This document shows, piece by piece, positions 19,662 through 30,198 of a DNA stretch of 64,000 nt. The stretch is taken from NCBI RefSeq assembly GCF_003018235.1, contig NZ_CP027437.1; one strand, given 5' to 3'. The notes beneath the pieces are model-generated. The model did not search any database. It saw only the letters and a program-made list of their open reading frames with translations, and was not told the DNA's origin. Source of the DNA: Escherichia coli (GTDB lineage Bacteria > Pseudomonadota > Gammaproteobacteria > Enterobacterales > Enterobacteriaceae). Each line of letters begins with the position of its first letter. Position 1 is the first letter of the stretch. The position numbers and the translations under genes were made by a program.

Positions 19662-20490
19662 GACGATGCCCTCCGTTGATATTCAGGAGACGGTGAATAT
19701 GAAAATTAGCCTTATCCGCCAAACGAATACGTTCAGCCTGCAAGTTAAGAAGTGTTTCTACCAGAACCTGATGCGCCTGCGGATCCGAAAGAGTTACCTT
19801 GCGCAGAGCACGTAGTGCAGTTGTTACATAACTGAGTTTATGTAAGTCTTCATCATTCAGACGAGTGAGGGCTGGGACAGTAGCCATGATGGCAGCCTCC
19901 TTGATCGGTGAAATACTTCCACCACCGGAAACGCCAATTTCGCTGGTGGTGAACTGAACGGGGTTGGCGTAACCGGTGATCAAGGAAACCGGCGCATCTT
20001 TCGATGCCCCCGCCCAGCCCACCATAACTTTGATGTGAGCAAATGCGGACGATAAAAAAGACGCTGGCGCGTCATATATCGCCTTGATCAATTCCAGGAC
20101 GCCAATCCCGGCACCCGCTTTATAAGGTGCCTGAACAGTGTAACGTCCCGGAATGGCAGAATCAATGTGCTGGTGGTCCTTCACACTCAACAAAATCACG
20201 CCTGAATTTCCACAAAGGACTAAAGCACTCATGCGGGTAGTCTTTGCGAAGATAGATAACGCGCTGTGTTTCTGGCTCCCAACGAATAACATGGACATAA
20301 AGCCCTCTTCCGTCACGAAACCAGCGGTTAAGTTCCTGCACAACTCGCCCCCCACAGTCAGGTAAAGTTCTCTGTGGTTACTTACAGCCAGGTGATTTGG
20401 TAATCTGCATTCATGCCGTAACAACAGGTGTTCAGCGACGCTGACCACCAGCTGTTGCGACAAACGGTTATTTGCCGTTAAACTGTTCAT
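19654..20490 (-). CDS. hypothetical protein (278 aa)
   Basis: long coherent ORF in early-right operon; family not recognised. Confidence 0.5.
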   Translation of the reverse strand: MNSLTANNRLSQQLVVSVAEHLLLRHECRLPNHLAVSNHRELYLTVGGELCRNLTAGFVTEEGFMSMLFVGSQKHSALSIFAKTTRMSALVLCGNSGVILLSVKDHQHIDSAIPGRYTVQAPYKAGAGIGVLELIKAIYDAPASFLSSAFAHIKVMVGWAGASKDAPVSLITGYANPVQFTTSEIGVSGGGSISPIKEAAIMATVPALTRLNDEDLHKLSYVTTALRALRKVTLSDPQAHQVLVETLLNLQAERIRLADKANFHIHRLLNINGGHRHA

Positions 20491-21038
20491 GCGTTAGTTT
20501 CTCCACAGACACAAAACGCCACGACGCCCGGAGCTGCACACTCGCGGGCGTCACTACTTTCTGAAACGCAAAAGATTTTGTAGACCAGTGCTGCATGCTC
20601 CTGGAGCTTCGAAATTGACAGATACAACTCATCATTAATTGCTGTCTGCTCGTGTGGCTCCACTACCCCATCTTCGATTGCCGAACGAATCTGCTTTGAG
20701 TAACTCCCGATCTGTTCGATGACTTCCAGCAGGCGCTGGTTTATATCGGCGTTCTCTACTTCCTCAATTTCAGGAAGCGATACAAACACCCCACCTGCAG
20801 ACTGTGCGACAGCATCCGCAATGTAGTGAGTGCCAGCCGCGCGCTGTAAAATCATTGCCCATCCCAGCGGGAAAATCTGATCGCCATCTGCACGAAGGCG
20901 GTTGAATAAAGCGTTCTCTGTTACATCCAGCCACTCAGCAGCTTCAGCGTAACCCCCCGGCAACGCCGCGATAGTTTTTCTGACAGCTTTCACGTACCAC
21001 TCAGGCTGTTTTTCTACTTTCCAGTGATGCTTACCCAC
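20487..21038 (-). CDS. YdaT-like / CII-analogue protein (start uncertain; ORF extends to 21143)
   Basis: directly downstream of cro-like gene; AAGGAG RBS then GTG at 21038. Confidence 0.35.
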   Translation of the reverse strand: MGKHHWKVEKQPEWYVKAVRKTIAALPGGYAEAAEWLDVTENALFNRLRADGDQIFPLGWAMILQRAAGTHYIADAVAQSAGGVFVSLPEIEEVENADINQRLLEVIEQIGSYSKQIRSAIEDGVVEPHEQTAINDELYLSISKLQEHAALVYKIFCVSESSDARECAAPGVVAFCVCGETNA

Positions 21039-21060
21039 GGCTATCTCCTTAAAACTGTGG

Positions 21061-21309
21061 TTACTTTTCATCTGATGAGTCTTTAATCTTTTGAAAAATA
21101 TCTGGACGTAATTTTTCTTTTGATACGCCAGTGGTCTTTTCAATGAAAATCGAGAGCTTTGCAGGGGGACGCTTTTCTCTGTTCAACCAGTTCCAGACAT
21201 GTTGTTGCTTTACTAAATGACCGCTGCTGGCTGTGAGCTTCCGAGCCAATTCTGATTGACCACCAGCCAGAGCGATTGCCTCCGATAAGGCTAATTGCTC
21301 AGGTGTCAT
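21061..21309 (-). CDS. Cro-like HTH repressor (YdaS family)
   Basis: LAGGQSELARKL...VKQQHVWNW...EKTTGVSKEKLRPDIF; AGGAGA RBS; divergent from cI. Confidence 0.7.
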   Translation of the reverse strand: MTPEQLALSEAIALAGGQSELARKLTASSGHLVKQQHVWNWLNREKRPPAKLSIFIEKTTGVSKEKLRPDIFQKIKDSSDEK

Positions 21310-21324
21310 AGCTTTCTCCTTTTT

Positions 21325-21420
21325 CGGTAGTTAAGTTGTTACGAGATGCAAGAATACAACATTAACAACTTTTATCACAACTTTTAGGTGTTGGAAAGCT
21401 AAAACATAAAGTTGTAACCT
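21325..21420. promoter_or_regulatory. OR-like operator/promoter region between cro and cI
   Basis: repeated AAGTTGT / ACAACTT half-sites and ACAACTTTTAGGTGTTGG motif. Confidence 0.5.
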
Positions 21421-21444
21421 CATCAGAAAAGAGAGGGATATGTT

Positions 21445-22131
21445 GTGAAAACACTGGCAGAACGATTAAAGATAGGTAGAGAGAAAGCTGGCATGAGCCA
21501 AGCTCAACTAGCTGAAAAAATTGGACTTTCACAACAATCTGTAGCCAAAATAGAGAATGGAGAAACTCTACAACCGCGCAAAATTAAAGAAATTGCAAAA
21601 ATTTTAGGTGTATCACAAAAGTGGTTACAACTTGGTATTGAAGACAACGCATCCATACCTGATCTTGTTGTAAAAGAAGCAGAAAGCACCGCATTAGACC
21701 CCGATATTTTCGTAAACATTCCTGTTTTAGATGTCGAGTTATCGGCTGGTAACGGATGTCTGGCTGAAATAGTTGAATCAGCTATTGACTGGTTTCCGTT
21801 AAGAAGAGCAGATTTGAGAAAATCTGGCGTATGTGCATCTAATGCCAAGATCGTAAAAATCTGGGGGAACAGTTTATTACCGGTTCTCAATAATGGAGAT
21901 CTTGTTGCCGTTGATATTTCTCAAACCGTTCCTATTCGTGATGGCGATCTTTATGCCGTACGAGATGGTGTATTGCTAAGGGTTAAAATACTTATCAACT
22001 TACCTGACGGTGGCTTGATTCTTAGAAGCTTCAACAAAGATGAGTACCCAGATGAAATACTCACCTTTGAGGATAGACGAGCCAGAATTCATGTTATAGG
22101 TAGGGTATTCTGGTCATCGCGAACTTGGTAA
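21445..22131 (+). CDS. CI-type repressor (HTH_XRE plus S24 LexA-like peptidase domain)
   Basis: N-terminal HTH MSQAQLAEKIGLSQQSVAKIENGE; C-terminal GNSLLP ... RVK; GTG start after GAGAGGG RBS. Confidence 0.85.
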   Translation: MKTLAERLKIGREKAGMSQAQLAEKIGLSQQSVAKIENGETLQPRKIKEIAKILGVSQKWLQLGIEDNASIPDLVVKEAESTALDPDIFVNIPVLDVELSAGNGCLAEIVESAIDWFPLRRADLRKSGVCASNAKIVKIWGNSLLPVLNNGDLVAVDISQTVPIRDGDLYAVRDGVLLRVKILINLPDGGLILRSFNKDEYPDEILTFEDRRARIHVIGRVFWSSRTW

Positions 22132-22653
22132 TGCGTCGAAAAGCATTTCTTCAGAAATAATTTTAAGTTTTGCACCATTATCATCCCGATAAGATATAGC
22201 CTTTTCGATCTTCCTTCCGTGACTTGAGAATTTCCAATCACGGGAGGAAAGCGTCCCTATTACTAAAAAATCCAACTTTTGAGTAATTCCACTACTGATG
22301 TTCCCACCAGCATTTTTAATCAAATTTTCAACTACGGCTCTCTTTCCTGCAACAAAAGTGCCTGTAAGACAATAGGTTTTACCCTCTAACTCTATCGAAG
22401 CCCCTACATCAATAGGCAGCCTGGTCGCCAAACCATCCACCACCCCACTTTCCAAGTCACATCCAGTGAAGTCTACTAATGCCTTATGTAGAGTTAAACT
22501 CTCATCTTCAGTAATAACACCATCTTTAAGAATTTCCTTTACAAGTGCATAAAGGTTTTTTCCTGGGTAGTTGTTCCTCAAAGCTCCATTTTGCTCAAGC
22601 CACCAATTAAGATATCTTATTTCTTCTTGAGTTAAGTTTCGATCAGCAATTAA
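22114..22653 (-). CDS. in-frame continuation after TGA: two TerB-like motif copies plus C-terminal BRCT-like domain (no ATG; TTG at 22581)
   Basis: frame open from the TGA at 22654-22656 to 22114; LIADRNLTQEEIRYL and ILKDGVITEDESL motifs; BRCT-like GKTYCLTGTF...DFLVIG. Confidence 0.45.
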   Translation of the reverse strand, partial: LIADRNLTQEEIRYLNWWLEQNGALRNNYPGKNLYALVKEILKDGVITEDESLTLHKALVDFTGCDLESGVVDGLATRLPIDVGASIELEGKTYCLTGTFVAGKRAVVENLIKNAGGNISSGITQKLDFLVIGTLSSRDWKFSSHGRKIEKAISYRDDNGAKLKIISEEMLFDALPSSR

Positions 22654-23004
22654 TCATTTACATAGTCCATTAAGTAAATGGACATCTACATCTTTGGAGT
22701 AAAAATCAATTTCAGGGATATCAAGAATTTCTCTCTGTATTTGAAGAAGGCTATTTTTAAGGTCATCACGTTCTTCTGATGTGATTATTCCATCCGCAAG
22801 AATATCCGATACCCGTGCTGATAGACTTTTTATAACTCCATTATTGATAATCTGCTTTGCTTCAAGTAACCATGTATCTAAGTAAAGAACCTCCTCTTCA
22901 CGGACAACTCCATCTGCAATGATTCCATCAATGATGCTAATCAAGTTAGCAAATAACTTGTCCCGGTTCTGTGTGTAATTAAAAGCGTAAAGCGCGTCTT
23001 CCAT
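22654..23004 (-). CDS. TerB-like repeat protein (116 aa), ends at in-frame TGA
   Basis: ATG 23004 with AGGAGG RBS; two copies of I-[IL]-A-D-G-[VI]-x-x-E-E motif. Confidence 0.6.
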   Translation of the reverse strand: MEDALYAFNYTQNRDKLFANLISIIDGIIADGVVREEEVLYLDTWLLEAKQIINNGVIKSLSARVSDILADGIITSEERDDLKNSLLQIQREILDIPEIDFYSKDVDVHLLNGLCK

Positions 23005-23060
23005 ACAACCTCCTTTTTTTGATAATCCTTGCACTCCTTGACTACACGTTCAAACTACAT

Positions 23061-23115
23061 AAAGTTGTTGACAACATTCAAAACAACAACCAGATTACAA
23101 CTTAAAGGTGTTGAG
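23061..23115. promoter_or_regulatory. OL-like operator cluster
   Basis: AAAGTTGTTGACAACATTC palindrome-like site and ACAACTTAAAGGTGTTGAG, matching the OR motif. Confidence 0.45.
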
Positions 23116-23184
23116 ATGACGAACAGGCAGGACGCCCACGAAGTAGCCGTCTGGGGCATATGAAGTCCAGGATGATTCGTTAGC

Positions 23185-23215
23185 AACAAAAAAGCGCCCT
23201 ATAGGACGCTTCGCT
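23185..23215 (-). terminator. intrinsic terminator after periplasmic-protein gene
   Basis: minus-strand AGCGTCCTATAGGGCGCT followed by TTTTTT. Confidence 0.45.
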
Positions 23216-23237
23216 CTTTAACAATCTGGATGACTTA

Positions 23238-23750
23238 TTACTCAGATTTGAACTTTGGTTCTGGCAAAAGAGGAGGAGTTGAGTCCTCGAATCGTAGCCA
23301 GTGCTCCCAGATATCGTGGGATTGTAATTCCAGAAGACCAATTTGACGTGATGCAACTGCAGTGCCAGCTATAGTTCCTCCTGCATAATCAACCTGGACG
23401 GACTTTGACGCTTTCTCAATTAATTCTGTCCAAGCTTCACTTTCCGCGTTAAAAGAAGCAGTTAATTCCTGCAGACGCTGTGGATCATCCTTGTTGTCTT
23501 GTTTCAAACGATTCAGGGCGGCCACCGAATACTTATTCTTAACCCAGCTAACCTGAGCTAACTGAACTCTCTGACAAGCGTCCATATCAGTAGTTGTTTC
23601 CTGAGGCATATCAAAGCAGGAAATAAAAAAAGTCTCAACACCATCATTTAGACTACTGCTCGGCTGGTTCAAAGCATCAGAAGCATTGGATGCTATCGGT
23701 ATTATCAGTGCTACCGACAGAATCAAACGTTTAACATAAATCGCTCCCAT
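23238..23750 (-). CDS. secreted/periplasmic protein (signal peptide; possibly DUF1311/LprI-like)
   Basis: ATG 23750 with GAGGGG RBS; N-terminal signal peptide; two Cys. Confidence 0.5.
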   Translation of the reverse strand: MGAIYVKRLILSVALIIPIASNASDALNQPSSSLNDGVETFFISCFDMPQETTTDMDACQRVQLAQVSWVKNKYSVAALNRLKQDNKDDPQRLQELTASFNAESEAWTELIEKASKSVQVDYAGGTIAGTAVASRQIGLLELQSHDIWEHWLRFEDSTPPLLPEPKFKSE

Positions 23751-24218
23751 TTAATTATCCCCTCTAAGAACAGAGTCATCCAGATTATCTGAATCCTTGT
23801 TGTTGGGGAATAACCAGGCCCACCTCGCCTGATGTGGCTAAAAGCAGGCACATAACAGCTAAGTATTTTCAACCAGAGAGAATCCTTAGCGTTGTGGTGA
23901 ATGCGGCTCAGCGCACGCGGGCTAAGGTTGAGGCTGACAGTCGACCTTCTGTGGATACCCACCCGCCTGGTGTGCAACCTTCGCCAGGCACCGGGAGGCA
24001 CCCGGCACCACAACTTTATGCTGTGTATAGTCCTGGCGGTACCAGTTTGTACCCTTGCTTCCGGCTGGTACCGCTCTTTTTACAAAACAGAGAAGAGCAT
24101 CACCGGACGACGGGCTCATAACCCAATCCACCCGGGCGGCTGCCACCGCAGGTGTTCTTCTCTGTTTTGTGGAGAAACCAACCGACCTTGCAGGGTCGAT
24201 ATGATGAGGAGCAGCAAA

Positions 24219-24581
24219 ATGGCTAGCGAACGCAGTACCAACGTGCAGGAATTTATCGTAGAACTGGACGGCGGCGTATTTGAAACTAAACTCGGCGCAG
24301 TTCTCAGTGAAGTCGCTTCCGGTGTGATGAACACGAAAAACAAAGGTAAAGTCTCGGTCAATCTGGACATCGAACCGTTTGATGAGAACCGTGTAAAAAT
24401 CAAACACAAACTCTCATATGTTCGCCCGACTAACCGCGGGAAAATTTCTGAAGAAGACACCACCGAAACGCCGATGTATGTCAATCGCGGTGGTCGCCTG
24501 ACTATTCTGCAGGAAGACCAGGGACAGTTACTGACTCTTGCCGGTGAACCTGACGGAAAACTCCGTGCAGCAGGTCGTTAA
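24219..24581 (+). CDS. YfdP-like protein (120 aa)
   Basis: AGGAG RBS; first gene of a yfdPQRST-like block as in CPS-53. Confidence 0.55.
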   Translation: MASERSTNVQEFIVELDGGVFETKLGAVLSEVASGVMNTKNKGKVSVNLDIEPFDENRVKIKHKLSYVRPTNRGKISEEDTTETPMYVNRGGRLTILQEDQGQLLTLAGEPDGKLRAAGR

Positions 24582-24646
24582 TATCGTTTTTAATAAACTG
24601 ATTATTTATCTCATCACTGAATATCTTTATATAGTGAGGACTTATT

Positions 24647-25471
24647 ATGTCTCAGAACTTAGACGCAACCGCAATTAATCAAATCCATGCTCTTATTTCT
24701 GCTCAGGGTGTTAATGAAATTATCAGTAAGATTGGTGCCGATGCCGTGGCATTGCCTGAGAATTTCCGCATTCATGATCTGGAAAAATTTAATTTAAATC
24801 GCTTCCGTTTCCGTGGTGCGCTTTCCACTGCCAGCATTGATGATTTTACCCGTTATTCTAAAGATCTTGCAGATGAAGGCACCCGCTGCTTTATCGATGC
24901 CGATAATATGCGAGCCGTCAGTGTGCTTAACCTGGGTACTATTGATGAACCAGGTCACGCAGATAACACCGCCACTCTCAAACTGAAAAAGACAGCACCG
25001 TTCTCTGCCCTGTTGTCTGTTAACGGCGAGCGTAACTCCCAGAAGTCACTGGCAGAATGGATTGAAGACTGGGCCGACTACCTTGTGGGCTTTGATGCTA
25101 ATGGTGACGCCATTCAGGCAACAAAAGCGGCTGCGGCAGTCCGTAAAATAACGATTGAAGCAAACCAGACCGCTGATTTTGAAGATAATGACTTCAGCGG
25201 CAAACGCTCCCTGATGGAATCTGTCGAAGCGAAGACCAAAGACATTATGCCAGTGGCATTTGAATTTAAATGCGTTCCGTTTGAAGGCCTGAAAGAACGT
25301 CCGTTTAAATTACGCCTCAGCATTATCACTGGCGATCGTCCTGTACTGGTTCTGCGCATTATTCAGCTGGAAGCAGTGCAGGAAGAAATGGCTAACGAAT
25401 TTCGTGATCTGCTTGTTGAGAAATTCAAAGACAGCAAAGTAGAAACCTTTATTGGTACTTTTACCGCCTGA
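24647..25471 (+). CDS. YfdQ-like protein (DUF2303)
   Basis: 274 aa; order and size match yfdQ. Confidence 0.65.
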
Positions 25472-25598
25472 TTTCCTTACTGCAAATGCCCCTGCGGGGG
25501 CATTTATGGAAACATAATTGACTCAATAATCGCCTGATGGCGAGGGTTTTCTTTAACCAAAATTCTGCGCGGTGCAGCGCATATACGTGGAGAACAAA

Positions 25599-26135
25599 AT
25601 GTCATTTATTAAAACTTTTTCCGGGAAGCATTTTTATTATGACAAGATAAATAAAGACGACATCGTGATTAACGATATCGCGGTTTCCCTTTCAAATATC
25701 TGTCGCTTTGCAGGACATCTTTCACACTTCTACAGTGTCGCCCAGCATGCAGTGCTTTGCAGCCAACTGGTGCCGCAGGAATTTGCTTTTGAAGCGTTAA
25801 TGCATGATGCAACAGAAACGTATTGCCAGGACATCCCCGCACCACTGAAACGACTTCTTCCTGACTATAAACGGATGGAAGAAAAAATAGACGCCGTAAT
25901 CCGTGAGAAATACGGGTTACCTCCTGTTATGAGCACGCCAGTGAAATATGCCGATCTCATTATGCTGGCAACCGAACGCCGCGATCTCGGACTTGATGAT
26001 GGCTCTTTCTGGCCTGTATTGGAAGGTATCCCGGCAACAGAGATGTTCAAAGTTATTCCACTGTCGCCAGGTCATGCCTACGGGATGTTTATGGAACGTT
26101 TTAACGAGTTATCGGAGTTACGCAAATGCGCATGA
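25599..26135 (+). CDS. HD-domain 5'-deoxynucleotidase (YfdR-like)
   Basis: HD-domain residues (H...HD...D); 178 aa from ATG 25599. Confidence 0.7.
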   Translation: MSFIKTFSGKHFYYDKINKDDIVINDIAVSLSNICRFAGHLSHFYSVAQHAVLCSQLVPQEFAFEALMHDATETYCQDIPAPLKRLLPDYKRMEEKIDAVIREKYGLPPVMSTPVKYADLIMLATERRDLGLDDGSFWPVLEGIPATEMFKVIPLSPGHAYGMFMERFNELSELRKCA

Positions 26136-26488
26136 ATGTTTTCGAAATGGAAGGGTTTCTTCGCGGGAAATGTGTACCGCGAGATCTGAAAGTGAACGAA
26201 ACAAATGCTGAGTACCTAGTACGTAAATTCGACGCGCTTGAAGCTAAATGTGCGGCACTGGAAAACAAAATAATACCAGTGTCAGCTGAATTGCCACCTG
26301 CAAATGAAAGTGTTCTGTTATTTGATGCTAACGGAGAAGGCTGGCTGATTGGCTGGCGTTCTCTCTGGTACACCTGGGGACAAAAGGAAACCGGAGAATG
26401 GCAGTGGACATTTCAGGTCGGGGATCTTGAAAACGTCAATATCACTCACTGGGCAGTAATACCAAAGGCACCGGAGGCAGGGGCATAA
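26126..26488 (+). CDS. YfdS-like protein
   Basis: 120 aa; overlaps yfdR-like stop. Confidence 0.55.
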   Translation: MRMNVFEMEGFLRGKCVPRDLKVNETNAEYLVRKFDALEAKCAALENKIIPVSAELPPANESVLLFDANGEGWLIGWRSLWYTWGQKETGEWQWTFQVGDLENVNITHWAVIPKAPEAGA

Positions 26489-27108
26489 TGACCACATTTA
26501 CCGACAAAGAACTGATTAAAGAAATCAAAGAGCGCATAGGCAGTCTGGATGTGCGAGACAATATTGAGCGCCGTGCTTATGAAATTGCTTTGGTATCGCT
26601 GGAAGCAGAACCGGTGGCATGGCTGCATTCAGACAATGGCTTAGGTATTCCGGCAATAACACGGAGTAAAAACATTGCTGACAGTTGGTTATCAAAGGGC
26701 TGGTATGTTCAGCCGCTATATATAGCCAAGCCAGTGCCGATGGTGCCAGATGTTCGTCCGTCTTTAAATAATGGCATAGTCGGCTTTGATGAAGGCTGGA
26801 ACGCCTGCCGCGCCGCCATGCTTCATGGTGCCGAACCTGTAAGCCAGACTTACAAGTTGAACGAGCTGTCGGGCAACTCTCCGGTAACTCCGGATGGTTG
26901 GATAAGCTGTAGTGAGCGAATGCCGGACGATAAACAGTATGTTTGGTGTTGGGGTAAGTCTTACGGCTGGACTGAGTGCGATACCTTCGAAGGGTATTAC
27001 GATTGGTCGAGAAACAAATGGTGGGCAGTTACTGACGATGGGGAAGAACCGGCATCGAAAGTAACCCACTGGATGCCGCTACCGGAGCCACCGCAGGAGG
27101 TGAAGTAA
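26488..27108 (+). CDS. YfdT-like protein (Trp-rich C-terminal domain)
   Basis: 206 aa; ATGA-type coupling with neighbours. Confidence 0.5.
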   Translation: MTTFTDKELIKEIKERIGSLDVRDNIERRAYEIALVSLEAEPVAWLHSDNGLGIPAITRSKNIADSWLSKGWYVQPLYIAKPVPMVPDVRPSLNNGIVGFDEGWNACRAAMLHGAEPVSQTYKLNELSGNSPVTPDGWISCSERMPDDKQYVWCWGKSYGWTECDTFEGYYDWSRNKWWAVTDDGEEPASKVTHWMPLPEPPQEVK

Positions 27109-27302
27109 TGAACAACTTAATGACAACTAAACAAGTCGCCGACTTCTGTGGCGTTTCAGTATCGACCGTTCTTCGATGGAACAGCGTAAACAGGAGAACT
27201 GGCCAGAAATACAGGCCTGAGTTTCCAGATCCTGATATTAAATCCTGCCCAAATAAATGGGCATCACACAAGATTTACAGATTTGCGGGAGTGATTGATT
27301 AA
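27108..27302 (+). CDS. AlpA-family HTH regulator / excisionase
   Basis: 64 aa; TTKQVADFCGVSVSTVLRW HTH; next to integrase module. Confidence 0.7.
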   Translation: MNNLMTTKQVADFCGVSVSTVLRWNSVNRRTGQKYRPEFPDPDIKSCPNKWASHKIYRFAGVID

Positions 27303-27584
27303 TATGTATTAGCTTAGATGTGAGCTGACACATCTATGATTAGATGCCAAACCTAATCTGAGCGTCCACTCTTTACCAAGAGCGGACGTTACCAATGACC
27401 ATATGACATGAATCGATAAGATCAAAACATTATCGCCAAGAAATGTCATACCATTGATACAAATAAAATTGATTACCCCCTTACTCTTGTTGAAAAGTTA
27501 GTCGTAGAGTACCTATCGCAATGTAATCAGCTTTAATCATTTGAAAATTACTCCTTAAAAATTAGCTTTTATATACTGAACAAA

Positions 27585-28304
27585 TTAAATCTCTGTTTCT
27601 TTTCCTGTTCGGCTCAACCAATACTCCATTGTTTGAGTATGAATCTTTTCAGCGTATATTTTATCAATTAATTTATCTCGTTTTTCTTTAATGACTTTAC
27701 GCAGTGAATCATATAACATAAAAAAACGTTCATCGTCTTCCTCATTATTACCGTAATTTATTTGATTGAGTTCTGAAAAAATATGATAATACCTTTTTTT
27801 CTTGGTCCCCGGCAATATTAAAACCAAGCCACATTGATCATATTCGAATTCACCTTTATGGGCAGCAAAGTTATGTCTAACATTCATAATAGAATCATGT
27901 AAATCTCTGTATTTTTCTGGCACATGCTTTCTCTGCAATGTGAATCGACGCCCTTTCGCCTCTGTAAAACACTTACCGTAAGTAACAACTTTTGATATAA
28001 ATAAAGACTTTAATATTAGATTCTTTTCTAAATCAGGATAAATAAAGTGTTGTTCTCTATTAATGTTATTACAAATGTTTTTTATTATATTCTCCCAACC
28101 AATAACATTCCGAAGATCTTTATCCAGCAACTGTAAGGCCACATATTGTTCTACAAAGCGGCCTTTTAAAGGTATTCGTGGTAATATTACACCTTTCTGC
28201 TTATAAACTCTTTCTATCGTATTATCTGGATATTGGATCTTCCTTATTTCTATTCCGTCTTCTTCTGATACCCTTACTAATGGTTCATTTTTTAACTTTG
28301 ACAT
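27585..28304 (-). CDS. hypothetical protein, AT-rich moron between xis and int
   Basis: 239 aa, K/E/N-rich; AGAGGG RBS; sits in a low-GC island 27300-28590. Confidence 0.55.
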   Translation of the reverse strand: MSKLKNEPLVRVSEEDGIEIRKIQYPDNTIERVYKQKGVILPRIPLKGRFVEQYVALQLLDKDLRNVIGWENIIKNICNNINREQHFIYPDLEKNLILKSLFISKVVTYGKCFTEAKGRRFTLQRKHVPEKYRDLHDSIMNVRHNFAAHKGEFEYDQCGLVLILPGTKKKRYYHIFSELNQINYGNNEEDDERFFMLYDSLRKVIKEKRDKLIDKIYAEKIHTQTMEYWLSRTGKETEI

Positions 28305-28589
28305 GTTAACCCTCTTAAATAAAAAACTAACTTTATCCAGATAGTGTCCGTTAAGAAGTTTTCGTTACAACTAAGTTTCTAGGTAAATCATGAATCATCC
28401 TATAGTATCAAAAACATTTGGTGGTAAACATCTGCATTTATCAAATAGCAGGAGCGATTTAGGGGCATAGGGATAGTGATGATATCTATACCCGCCCCCT
28501 CTTATGTCAACACAATGGAGTAAACTTAACGCTCACATTTCGCTCAAAGTGTGCTAGGAGATTTGGTTATGTTCAGGTGATACAAACCG

Positions 28590-29813
28590 TCAGTTTGAAT
28601 CAGAGATAGTACAATTAACAATCGATTCAACCCTCTTCCACCATGCCAGGTAAGCTTTACGCTGTTCTTCTAGATAATCGCTCTTATCATAAACTTGCCA
28701 TACCCCTGGCAGCTTATGACCAAGCATAATTTCTGCGATATGAGGCGCAGTAAGATCAGAAAAATTTGTTCGTGCTGTCCGTCTCAAGTCATGAAGAGAC
28801 CAATGAGGGAATTGATATCCTAAACGCCGCCACGCGTACTGCATTAAATTGTAAGGCAGCGACTGTAATGATGTCCTACCGACGGGTTCCCTGCTTCCTT
28901 CCTTAGTAAAAAGCATATCGGAACCGTTGTTCATAGAGATAACGTATTTTATAAGCTCTTCAACCGGTTCAATAATGGGCCGCTTTAGCGGTTTGCCTGT
29001 TATGTCCCCTGTCTTATGTCGTTCAGGTGGTACAGTCCATACCTTATTTATGAAATCAAAATCACCCACCCTAGCAGTAATTAGCTCCGAACTACGGCAA
29101 CCAAAATGCAGTAATAGTTTAATGAAGGCCCGGTATTTGGGAACCATTCTAGAGCCATCGATCGCAGCATAAAGAATTTTAATTTCATCGTGTGTCAGAA
29201 ACCGTTTCTTCTGACCTTTACGGATATCCATATCTTTACCCGTGATATCCGACAGCGGGCGAGTTTCAATAAGCTTTCTCTTATACGCCCAGACATGGGC
29301 CTGCTTTGCGTTAATTAGCAATCGGTCTGCTATTGCTGGAGTCTTAGTGCTAAGAGGCTCCAAGACTTCTAACCAATCATGCAATGTAGCTGCATCGTGA
29401 GGGATATTCCCGATTTTAGAGAACAGGTGCAGCTCAAACGAGCGGAGTATCTGTTCAGAACCCTTTTTATTTTTTACACAATATGCTTCATACCAGGCAC
29501 GGATCACAGACTCTACCGTCATGGCTTCAGTAGCTTTTCGTTTTTCAGCCTGCTTGACCAATCGTGGATTACGGTTTGACTCGAGTTCACCACGGAGACG
29601 GATAACTTCTTCTCTGGCCTCTTTTAATCCAGTTGCCGGGTAAGTTCCGATATCAAGACGCTCACCTTTCCCTGCCCATTGATAACGATATTGGAACACT
29701 ACGCGACCTTTCGGTGATACTCTGACAGACAGACCATCACGATCGGATTTAACCAAAACCTTATCACGTTCCTTTCCAACGACTGAACGCAACCACGCAT
29801 CAGACAGCGCCAT
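28590..29813 (-). CDS. tyrosine-type phage integrase (P4-like, N-terminal arm-binding domain)
   Basis: 407 aa; C-terminal catalytic region with R...H-x-x-R...Y; prophage-chromosome junction nearby. Confidence 0.9.
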   Translation of the reverse strand: MALSDAWLRSVVGKERDKVLVKSDRDGLSVRVSPKGRVVFQYRYQWAGKGERLDIGTYPATGLKEAREEVIRLRGELESNRNPRLVKQAEKRKATEAMTVESVIRAWYEAYCVKNKKGSEQILRSFELHLFSKIGNIPHDAATLHDWLEVLEPLSTKTPAIADRLLINAKQAHVWAYKRKLIETRPLSDITGKDMDIRKGQKKRFLTHDEIKILYAAIDGSRMVPKYRAFIKLLLHFGCRSSELITARVGDFDFINKVWTVPPERHKTGDITGKPLKRPIIEPVEELIKYVISMNNGSDMLFTKEGSREPVGRTSLQSLPYNLMQYAWRRLGYQFPHWSLHDLRRTARTNFSDLTAPHIAEIMLGHKLPGVWQVYDKSDYLEEQRKAYLAWWKRVESIVNCTISDSN

Positions 29814-29823
29814 TACTCACCTT

Positions 29824-29879
29824 GTACAAATCGCAAAACACCTCTGCTGCTTTGTACATTATGTACAAGCACATGTACA
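29824..29879. repeat. four TGTACA repeats immediately upstream of int (putative arm/regulatory sites)
   Basis: TGTACA at 29824, 29854, 29862, 29874. Confidence 0.3.
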
Positions 29880-30198
29880 GATTTTTGATGAAAGCAACCT
29901 GATCGATTTAAAGTTACATGAAAGAATTTTCAATTAAAGAAGCCACATAACTATATGTATTTAAATGATTTATATAGCTAGACCTCAATTAACTGAAAGG
30001 ATTTTGAAAGAGTAAAAGAGCTTTAATTTGGGATTAATTATTGGGGTGAGAAATAATGGCAAAAGTGCGGCGCTTCGCCACCTCTTGCAAATAAGGAGAC
30101 AACGTCATAATTCTTTCTTCTTGAGTAAGCGGCATCGCGCCGCGCTTGTTGAAAACGAAAAATTGCGGCTATTTTACCCATCAACGGGGGGGAGGCAA

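Follow-up and report, generated by a model that had tools for sequence, protein, structure and literature searches.

Here, we describe a small gene in a prophage of Escherichia coli. The DNA analyzed is a stretch of 64,000 nucleotides (nt) of contig NZ_CP027437.1, hereafter called the window, and the segment under study is an AT-rich interval at positions 27303-28589. This interval holds one long intact open reading frame (ORF), 27585..28304 on the minus strand, which has 239 codons, starts with ATG, and very probably encodes a stand-alone member of the HEPN superfamily. The gene corresponds to gp29 of Escherichia phage 2H10 (WP_000040219.1).

A preliminary description of the window had presented the interval as a low-GC island, and its composition bears this out. 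The guanine-cytosine (GC) content is 0.333, with the ORF at 0.314, the spacer upstream of it at 0.372, and the spacer downstream at 0.340; by comparison, int stands at 0.445 and the prophage to the left of the interval at 0.451; for the host DNA and again for the entire window, the figure is 0.50. In a scan with 1255 sliding windows of 1287 bp each, the interval ranked among the five lowest in GC, and all of the 15 lowest sliding windows overlapped it. The same description had drawn attention to a 239-amino acid (aa) frame with a good ribosome-binding site (RBS) and a product rich in K, E, and N. Both points hold. Direct reading of the sequence places a Shine-Dalgarno motif, AAGAGGG, at 28310..28316 (minus strand), 5 nt ahead of the ATG and inside an 18-nt conserved upstream stretch, and the protein contains 10.9% K, 9.2% E, and 6.3% N, together with much I (9.6%) and L (9.2%).

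On one side of the interval lies xis (27108..27302, plus strand), which encodes an AlpA-type excisionase/regulator of 64 aa and is the last gene of the early-left operon; in 2H10, gp30 is annotated “excisionase.” On the other side lies int (28590..29813, minus strand), for a P4-type tyrosine integrase of 407 aa, at the prophage/host junction beside yjjG; the host genes beyond it are yjjG, rimI, holD, and rsmC. It had been noticed before that the ORF stands between excisionase and integrase and opposite xis. To this we can add that it is read in the same direction as int, directly downstream of it, and is convergent with xis. Two AT-rich spacers flank it, one of 285 bp from the int stop to the start of the gene (28305..28589, minus strand) and one of 282 bp on the side where xis and the gene face each other with their 3′ ends (27303..27584). 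The second spacer contains a small ORF of 19 aa, MIKADYIAIGTLRLTFQQE, at 27480-27539 on the minus strand, with a strong AAGGAG site, ~45 nt past the stop of the HEPN gene. It was considered as a partner of that gene and rejected, as this flank has no counterpart in the Cronobacter and Leclercia loci; it probably arose by chance.

On the minus strand of 28305-28589, no sigma-70-like site and no terminator-like site was found, nor was a LexA box found upstream of the window copy. In 27303-27584, we found no terminator-like site, tandem repeat, or Rfam RNA; around the window copy in general, neither tandem repeats nor notable inverted repeats turned up, and no Rfam RNA was found. An RNA antitoxin of the ToxIN kind was rejected because repeats and Rfam RNA are missing near the gene. 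Transcription presumably comes from a promoter in 28305-28589 or by read-through from int. Since no terminator-like site separates the gene from the convergent early-left operon, induction of the prophage should alter its expression.

The frame at 27585..28304 is a real gene. When 1.84 billion cluster representatives were searched exhaustively with HMMER (E ≤ 0.001), 496 related clusters came back (about 500 at 50% identity), nearly all of them single-domain proteins of ~225-260 aa, with a range from Proteobacteria to Bacteroidota and mycobacteria. Identical or near-identical DNA is present in ~68-70 of 5426 complete E. coli genomes, where the annotation is always “hypothetical protein.” Measured against the orthologues of Cronobacter (85% aa identity), Leclercia (83%), and an IMG/VR contig (76%), the ratio of nonsynonymous to synonymous substitution rates (dN/dS) is 0.06-0.11, which indicates strong purifying selection. 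These ratios, the 496 clusters, and the confident structural model described below led us to reject the possibility that the frame is not a gene.

Escherichia phage 2H10 (NC_049950), a sequenced temperate phage, carries the gene in the order int, gp29, excisionase. Its gp29 has 99.6% aa identity to the window protein, and its genome matches the window at 97% over 24034-30085. When a 12.7-kb stretch of 2H10 was compared, matches at 97% occurred only at window positions 20089-21040 and 24034-30085, and the part between them (21041-24033), which includes the immunity region, differs. This divergence makes the window prophage a mosaic relative of 2H10, not the same phage.

Sequence motif and predicted fold

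The preliminary description had been unable to assign the protein to a family. In one respect this stands, as the libraries hold no name for it. Neither the query nor distant members gave a significant family in Pfam or NCBIfam, and PHROGs places the query in phrog_8440, of “unknown function.” Searches of PDB sequences gave nothing meaningful with the single query or with a profile of 83 sequences, and a word-indexed homologue search with the alignment brought almost no additions and no Pfam labels. The family lies outside all the profile libraries searched (Pfam, NCBIfam, PADLOC, and the function labels of PHROGs). In the other respect it is possible to go further, since the HEPN superfamily can be reached through a motif and a model. 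Clear homology to a housekeeping phage function, which had been named as the finding that would speak against a special role, was not found.

Conservation was assessed in two sets, 83 diverse family members that are 20-57% identical to the query and 52 further, more distant ones; Pfam was scanned one by one in 134 members. Five residues (D63, Y109, R119, H136, and R143) are invariant in the 83, and near-invariant are H149 (82/83), A148 and G151 (80/83 each), and also K111, F113, and W70. Residue 144 is H or N in all 83. Even in the 52 distant members, Y109, H136, R143, and H149 do not vary. The pattern R143-[H/N]-N-x-A-A-H149 is invariant or nearly so throughout the 134 diverse members, and it is an Rx5H motif, that is, the Rx4-6H form of HEPN proteins with a polar residue after the R. 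In the window protein it reads R143-H-N-F-A-A-H149, is encoded at 27858..27878 (minus strand), and lies at the end of helix 3, where it is predicted to be catalytic. As far as their conservation goes, D63, Y109, K111, R119, and H136 are consistent with an active site.

Structure prediction had been proposed as a check, and it proved informative. From the 83-sequence alignment, AlphaFold2 produced a confident model of the 239-aa protein (mean pLDDT 93, pTM 0.85). Three N-terminal strands (9-36) precede helix 1 (49-79), helix 2 (92-111), a conserved loop (112-129), and helix 3 (130-147); a beta-hairpin (156-181) and a long helix 4 (188-221) complete the layout. The model contains the four-helix core of HEPN proteins with an insert between helices 2 and 3, and such inserts are typical of HEPN domains (PMC3710099). 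The R143-H149 motif stands at the end of the third core helix, which ends at residue 147, and runs into the next loop. This is the exact site given for Rx4-6H, at the end of helix 3 or the start of the loop to helix 4 and usually with a polar N, H, or D after the R (PMC3710099), and we accordingly read it as the HEPN motif.

A Foldseek search of AFDB50, the more discriminating of the fold searches, returned near full-length matches (TM 0.6-0.9) to uncharacterized family members and to proteins with HEPN in their UniProt names. The latter comprised Cthe-2314-like HEPN (E 2e-18), ApeA-like HEPN (8e-12), AbiU2-like HEPN (7e-9 to 4e-7), and RiboL-PSP-HEPN (3e-7). Against the PDB, Foldseek gave no match at E ≤ 0.001. 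The top structural matches were the HEPN toxins 7ae2 and 5yep. In the Pfam scan, the only recurring family was HEPN_AbiU2, in 4 of the 134 members, with i-Evalues of 0.0056-0.1 and none ≤0.001, and the models HEPN_Cthe2314 (PF18730) and HEPN_Apea (PF18739) matched none of the 134. From motif and model together, we consider it very probable that the 239-aa protein belongs to the HEPN superfamily and has kept the catalytic motif.

Genomic contexts of the family

Between E. coli and Cronobacter or Leclercia, nucleotide conservation extends from 18 nt before the ATG, including the RBS, to 8 nt past the stop. We compared ~30 family loci from NCBI, Logan, ENA, IMG/VR, and GenBank phages, the IMG/VR loci coming from a scan built from a 21-sequence alignment, and no neighbor recurred from one context to another. 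The loci fall into five phage contexts, at accessory positions of unrelated temperate phages.

In the first context, that of the window, the gene follows int in lambdoid prophages of E. coli that resemble 2H10; IMG/VR contributed 14 such loci, including one frameshifted and one truncated copy. In the second, cI and then int precede the gene, which occupies the outermost attL end of P2/186-like prophages in Enterobacter, Citrobacter, and Yersinia; these members are 38-41% identical to the query. Repressor and int of phages 186 and P2 are transcribed together in the lysogen, and since cI-int is a lysogenic transcript there, these copies are probably expressed in the lysogen as well. At the Yersinia locus (L018), the gene begins before int has ended, with an overlap of 17 nt that implies co-transcription with int.

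The third context is the tail-fiber end of lambdoid prophages, where the gene comes after umuD-umuC with gaps of 40-400 nt and members are 85, 76, 46, 45, and 31% identical. The loci linked to umuDC, or to a umuC remnant, are L008 (4021-6720), L039 (2905-5720), L042 (3530-5717), L043 (3672-5705), and L020 (6409-7747). In Cronobacter, a short DUF4113 fragment (the umuC C-terminus) is also present after the family gene. The linkage may reflect either SOS co-regulation or a common insertion hotspot. At L043, the 45%-identical homologue has on one side a PDC-S42 candidate (E 1e-90) and on the other a protein with a TIR domain (PDC-S66/ThsB-like, E 1.7e-25), a modest case of guilt by association. 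These neighbors, at 2035-2958 and 7223-7999 (both on the minus strand) and within ~2 kb, make up a small defence-like cluster at the prophage end.

In the fourth context, a member of 23% identity separates the lysis cassette from the terminase genes in a lambdoid prophage of Citrobacter. In the fifth, one of 28% identity comes after gene I, which is zot-like, in a filamentous phage (inovirus) of Vibrio. For this phage, 10N.286.54.E4_PE002 (PQ189351; Tubulavirales), a depositor note calls the family member an “endonuclease” (L024 7482-8219, plus strand).

The slot between xis and int behaves as a variable cargo hotspot. Sister E. coli prophages with the same yjjG site, int, and xis carry other orphan genes in it, namely an ORF of 342 aa (L014 2113-3141) and one of 271 aa (L015 1847-2662), both on the minus strand. 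Neither has a significant match in Pfam, NCBIfam, or PADLOC, and because they cannot be annotated they neither strengthen nor weaken the idea of a defence hotspot. These sister prophages retain xis with 91-95% identity, and no other family context contains it.

The gene had been placed by the preliminary description among the morons that prophages carry close to int, and this has been borne out by conservation that is limited to the ORF, by other cargo in the same slot, and by its solitary occurrence at accessory phage sites. It is a prophage moron, of deviant composition, dispensable, and found at variable sites in unrelated phages.

A possible role and its alternatives

With moderate confidence, we propose that this stand-alone HEPN protein acts as a single-protein ribonuclease (RNase) in abortive infection (Abi) and is carried as a moron by temperate phages. 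HEPN domains are metal-independent endoRNases (PMC3710099), and the 239-aa protein is most likely one too; the preliminary description had thought of single-gene Abi or exclusion proteins, and the intact, family-wide Rx5H in a HEPN fold gives the Abi idea a basis in structure and mechanism. From this likeness to characterized systems we infer its RNase activity, dimerization, expression in the lysogen, trigger, and defence phenotype.

The mechanism might run as follows. The lysogen would make the protein in an inactive resting state, and a component or a consequence of infection by another phage would activate it. A candidate sensor is the added beta-sheet, formed by the N-terminal strands together with the hairpin that joins helices 3 and 4. 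As in other HEPN enzymes, the R143/H149 motifs of two subunits would meet; here D63, Y109, K111, R119, and H136 would aid them. The activated enzyme would then cut cellular RNA (tRNA, rRNA, or mRNA), so that translation stops and the infection is aborted. Self-activation could be avoided if the carrier phage lacks the trigger, as with HepS (described below), or if the gene is silenced on induction. On the second point we can only speculate: the early-left operon, whose last gene is xis, is transcribed toward the HEPN gene and meets its 3′ end first, and this convergent layout suggests antisense interference that would silence the gene at induction. The idea is tempered by xis not being specific to HEPN cargo.

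A more far-reaching version of this proposal seems to us possible but rather doubtful. The proteins would then be an undescribed, widespread family of single-protein HEPN Abi nucleases with a beta-sheet sensor of their own, wired into transcripts that depend on the state of the phage. The wiring would be to the cI-int lysogenic operon, to umuDC/SOS operons, or, by convergence, to the early-left operon. As a consequence, the nuclease would be switched on in the lysogen, and induction of the carrier prophage would silence it or give it another use.

It is important to set out what weighs against a defence role. Decayed copies occupy the int-adjacent slot in two IMG/VR loci, one frameshifted (L040 1510-2227) and one reduced to a 91-aa stub (L041 1510-2226), and they show that the gene is dispensable and occasionally lost. 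The defence-profile scan that had been recommended was run with PADLOC 2.0, including its candidate “PDC” models, and turned up nothing for the query (no family at E ≤ 10); among ten distant members the matches stayed at chance level, the best being LmuA at E 0.0017. No HEPN model of Pfam was significant for any member, and the query itself had no HEPN match. The scan around the gene identified no promoter, and expression in the lysogen is a prediction; with a GC content of 31%, the gene may be subject to H-NS silencing in E. coli. That family genes recur behind umuDC could indicate expression tied to the SOS response, not to lysogeny. Finally, the accession WP_000040219.1 appears in no paper among the literature searched, and the role of the family is one that we infer.

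If the protein is an RNase, it could serve the life cycle of the phage itself, or competition at induction, and not the protection of the lysogen; SOS-linked host shut-off, remodeling of tRNA or mRNA, counter-defence, and the killing of co-resident prophages would all be examples. We regard this as unlikely. At six loci, members that are 31-85% identical do lie directly downstream of prophage umuD-umuC, classically a LexA-controlled operon, with a gap of 40 nt at L043. However, the gaps after umuC vary over 40-400 nt, the flanks are not conserved, and the window copy has no LexA box upstream. The convergence with the early-left operon, uninterrupted by a terminator-like site, would also suit such a use, and there is a precedent in Gifsy-1, whose defence nucleases are accompanied by an anticodon nuclease that stress activates (PMC13043305). 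Pointing the other way, in P2/186-like prophages the gene follows cI-int, a lysogenic transcript, and it is dispensable, with sister prophages of the same int and xis carrying other cargo.

We give still less credence to the gene being the toxin of an addiction (toxin-antitoxin) module that stabilizes the prophage, with a small ORF, an antisense RNA, or the xis-like gene as antitoxin. Many HEPN proteins are indeed toxins paired with MNT or other antitoxins, and 7ae2 and 5yep head the structural matches, but no MNT gene or other common neighbor was found in the ~30 loci, nor were repeats or an Rfam RNA. The 19-aa ORF with its strong AAGGAG site lies just downstream, yet between genera nothing past the ORF and its RBS is conserved. 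As for xis, the int-adjacent “xis” of the Tha system is really an inhibitor (PMC11087260), whereas the xis gene here is kept in prophages that have no HEPN gene (91-95%) and is missing wherever else the family occurs. A non-catalytic helical bundle, serving as a regulator or binding protein and resembling HEPN proteins as any generic four-helix bundle might, is very improbable. R143, H149, and a polar residue 144 are kept across 134 members at ~20-30% identity and coincide exactly, in structural terms, with the site of the HEPN motif, and the near full-length AFDB matches extend to four differently named HEPN families, with E down to 2e-18. The Abi RNase is our preferred reading.

Comparison with known HEPN systems

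HEPN effectors include AbiD, AbiF, AbiJ, AbiU2, AbiV, AbiA's C-terminal domain, Csm6/Csx1, Cas13, and many toxins (PMC3710099). Within the superfamily, the 239-aa protein is nearest to the AbiU2 (PF18734), Cthe_2314 (PF18730), and ApeA (PF18739) branches, of which AbiU2 comes from a lactococcal abortive-infection system (PMC3710099). These families have in common a core of four helices, in which an insert separates helices 2 and 3, and, as here, a motif R-[N/H]-x3-A-H where helix 3 ends, and they are the best annotated AFDB matches. Against their hidden Markov models, however, no member of the new family is significant. Features of its own are the KDLRN segment in helix 1, the Y-G-K-C-F-T...G-R loop, H136, the N-terminal three-stranded sheet, and the beta-hairpin between helices 3 and 4.

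The HEPN toxins of the HEPN-MNT type (PDB 7ae2, 5yep) are smaller (~130-145 aa) and have no beta elements, and an MNT antitoxin gene accompanies them in every case. A HEPN-MNT toxin-antitoxin pair was rejected for the window, where the neighbors are int and xis; among the ~30 loci there is no MNT gene and no conserved neighbor.

The best functional model, by analogy, is HepS of the Salmonella prophage Gifsy-1 (PDB 9OIJ/9OIK), an inactive tetramer that opens on binding of a tail-tip protein and cuts the anticodon loops of tRNA (PMC13043305). Like HepS, the protein described here is a single HEPN protein of <250 aa whose gene, free of any partner, occupies an accessory site in a lambdoid prophage. 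The protein differs in its motif, Rx5H as against R100-x4-H105, and has no sequence match in the PDB; the comparison with HepS is one of descriptions, not of sequences.

Tha, of the S. aureus phages 80alpha and phi11, is a non-specific HEPN RNase that is encoded beside int in the lysogeny module and activated by tail proteins of incoming phages; during induction it is held in check by an antisense “xis”-like gene, ith (PMC11087260). The HEPN gene of the window likewise lies near int and opposite a small xis gene, and the convergent layout of the two, xis being of the AlpA type, recalls the antisense ith/tha unit. Unlike the window protein, Tha has 301 aa with a HEPN domain at the C-terminus only, carries an Rx4H motif (RNSIMH), and needs its inhibitor Ith. 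Unlike ith, the window xis is AlpA-type, does not overlap the HEPN gene, and persists without it. A dedicated inhibitor of the Tha/Ith kind was rejected for xis, which stays with other cargo in L014 and L015 and is lacking in all remaining contexts of the family.

If our proposal is correct, the short list of prophage single-protein HEPN immune nucleases (HepS, Tha) gains a new family, a compact 239-aa system with its own trigger and RNA target, and a function can be given to a “hypothetical” gene in dozens of complete E. coli genomes and to its relatives across many phyla. Specialists would not be surprised by a HEPN Abi protein in a prophage moron slot; the recurrent wiring to cI-int and umuDC is the least expected aspect. 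Placement behind these operons offers a handle on how prophages stop their own nucleases from aborting induction.

In HepS and Tha, one prophage-encoded HEPN protein both senses infection and executes Abi (PMC13043305, PMC11087260). Membership in either family is not supported for the 239-aa protein, which by analogy would work like both. It represents a new family among the prophage-borne single-protein HEPN nucleases, with a presumed role as an RNase.

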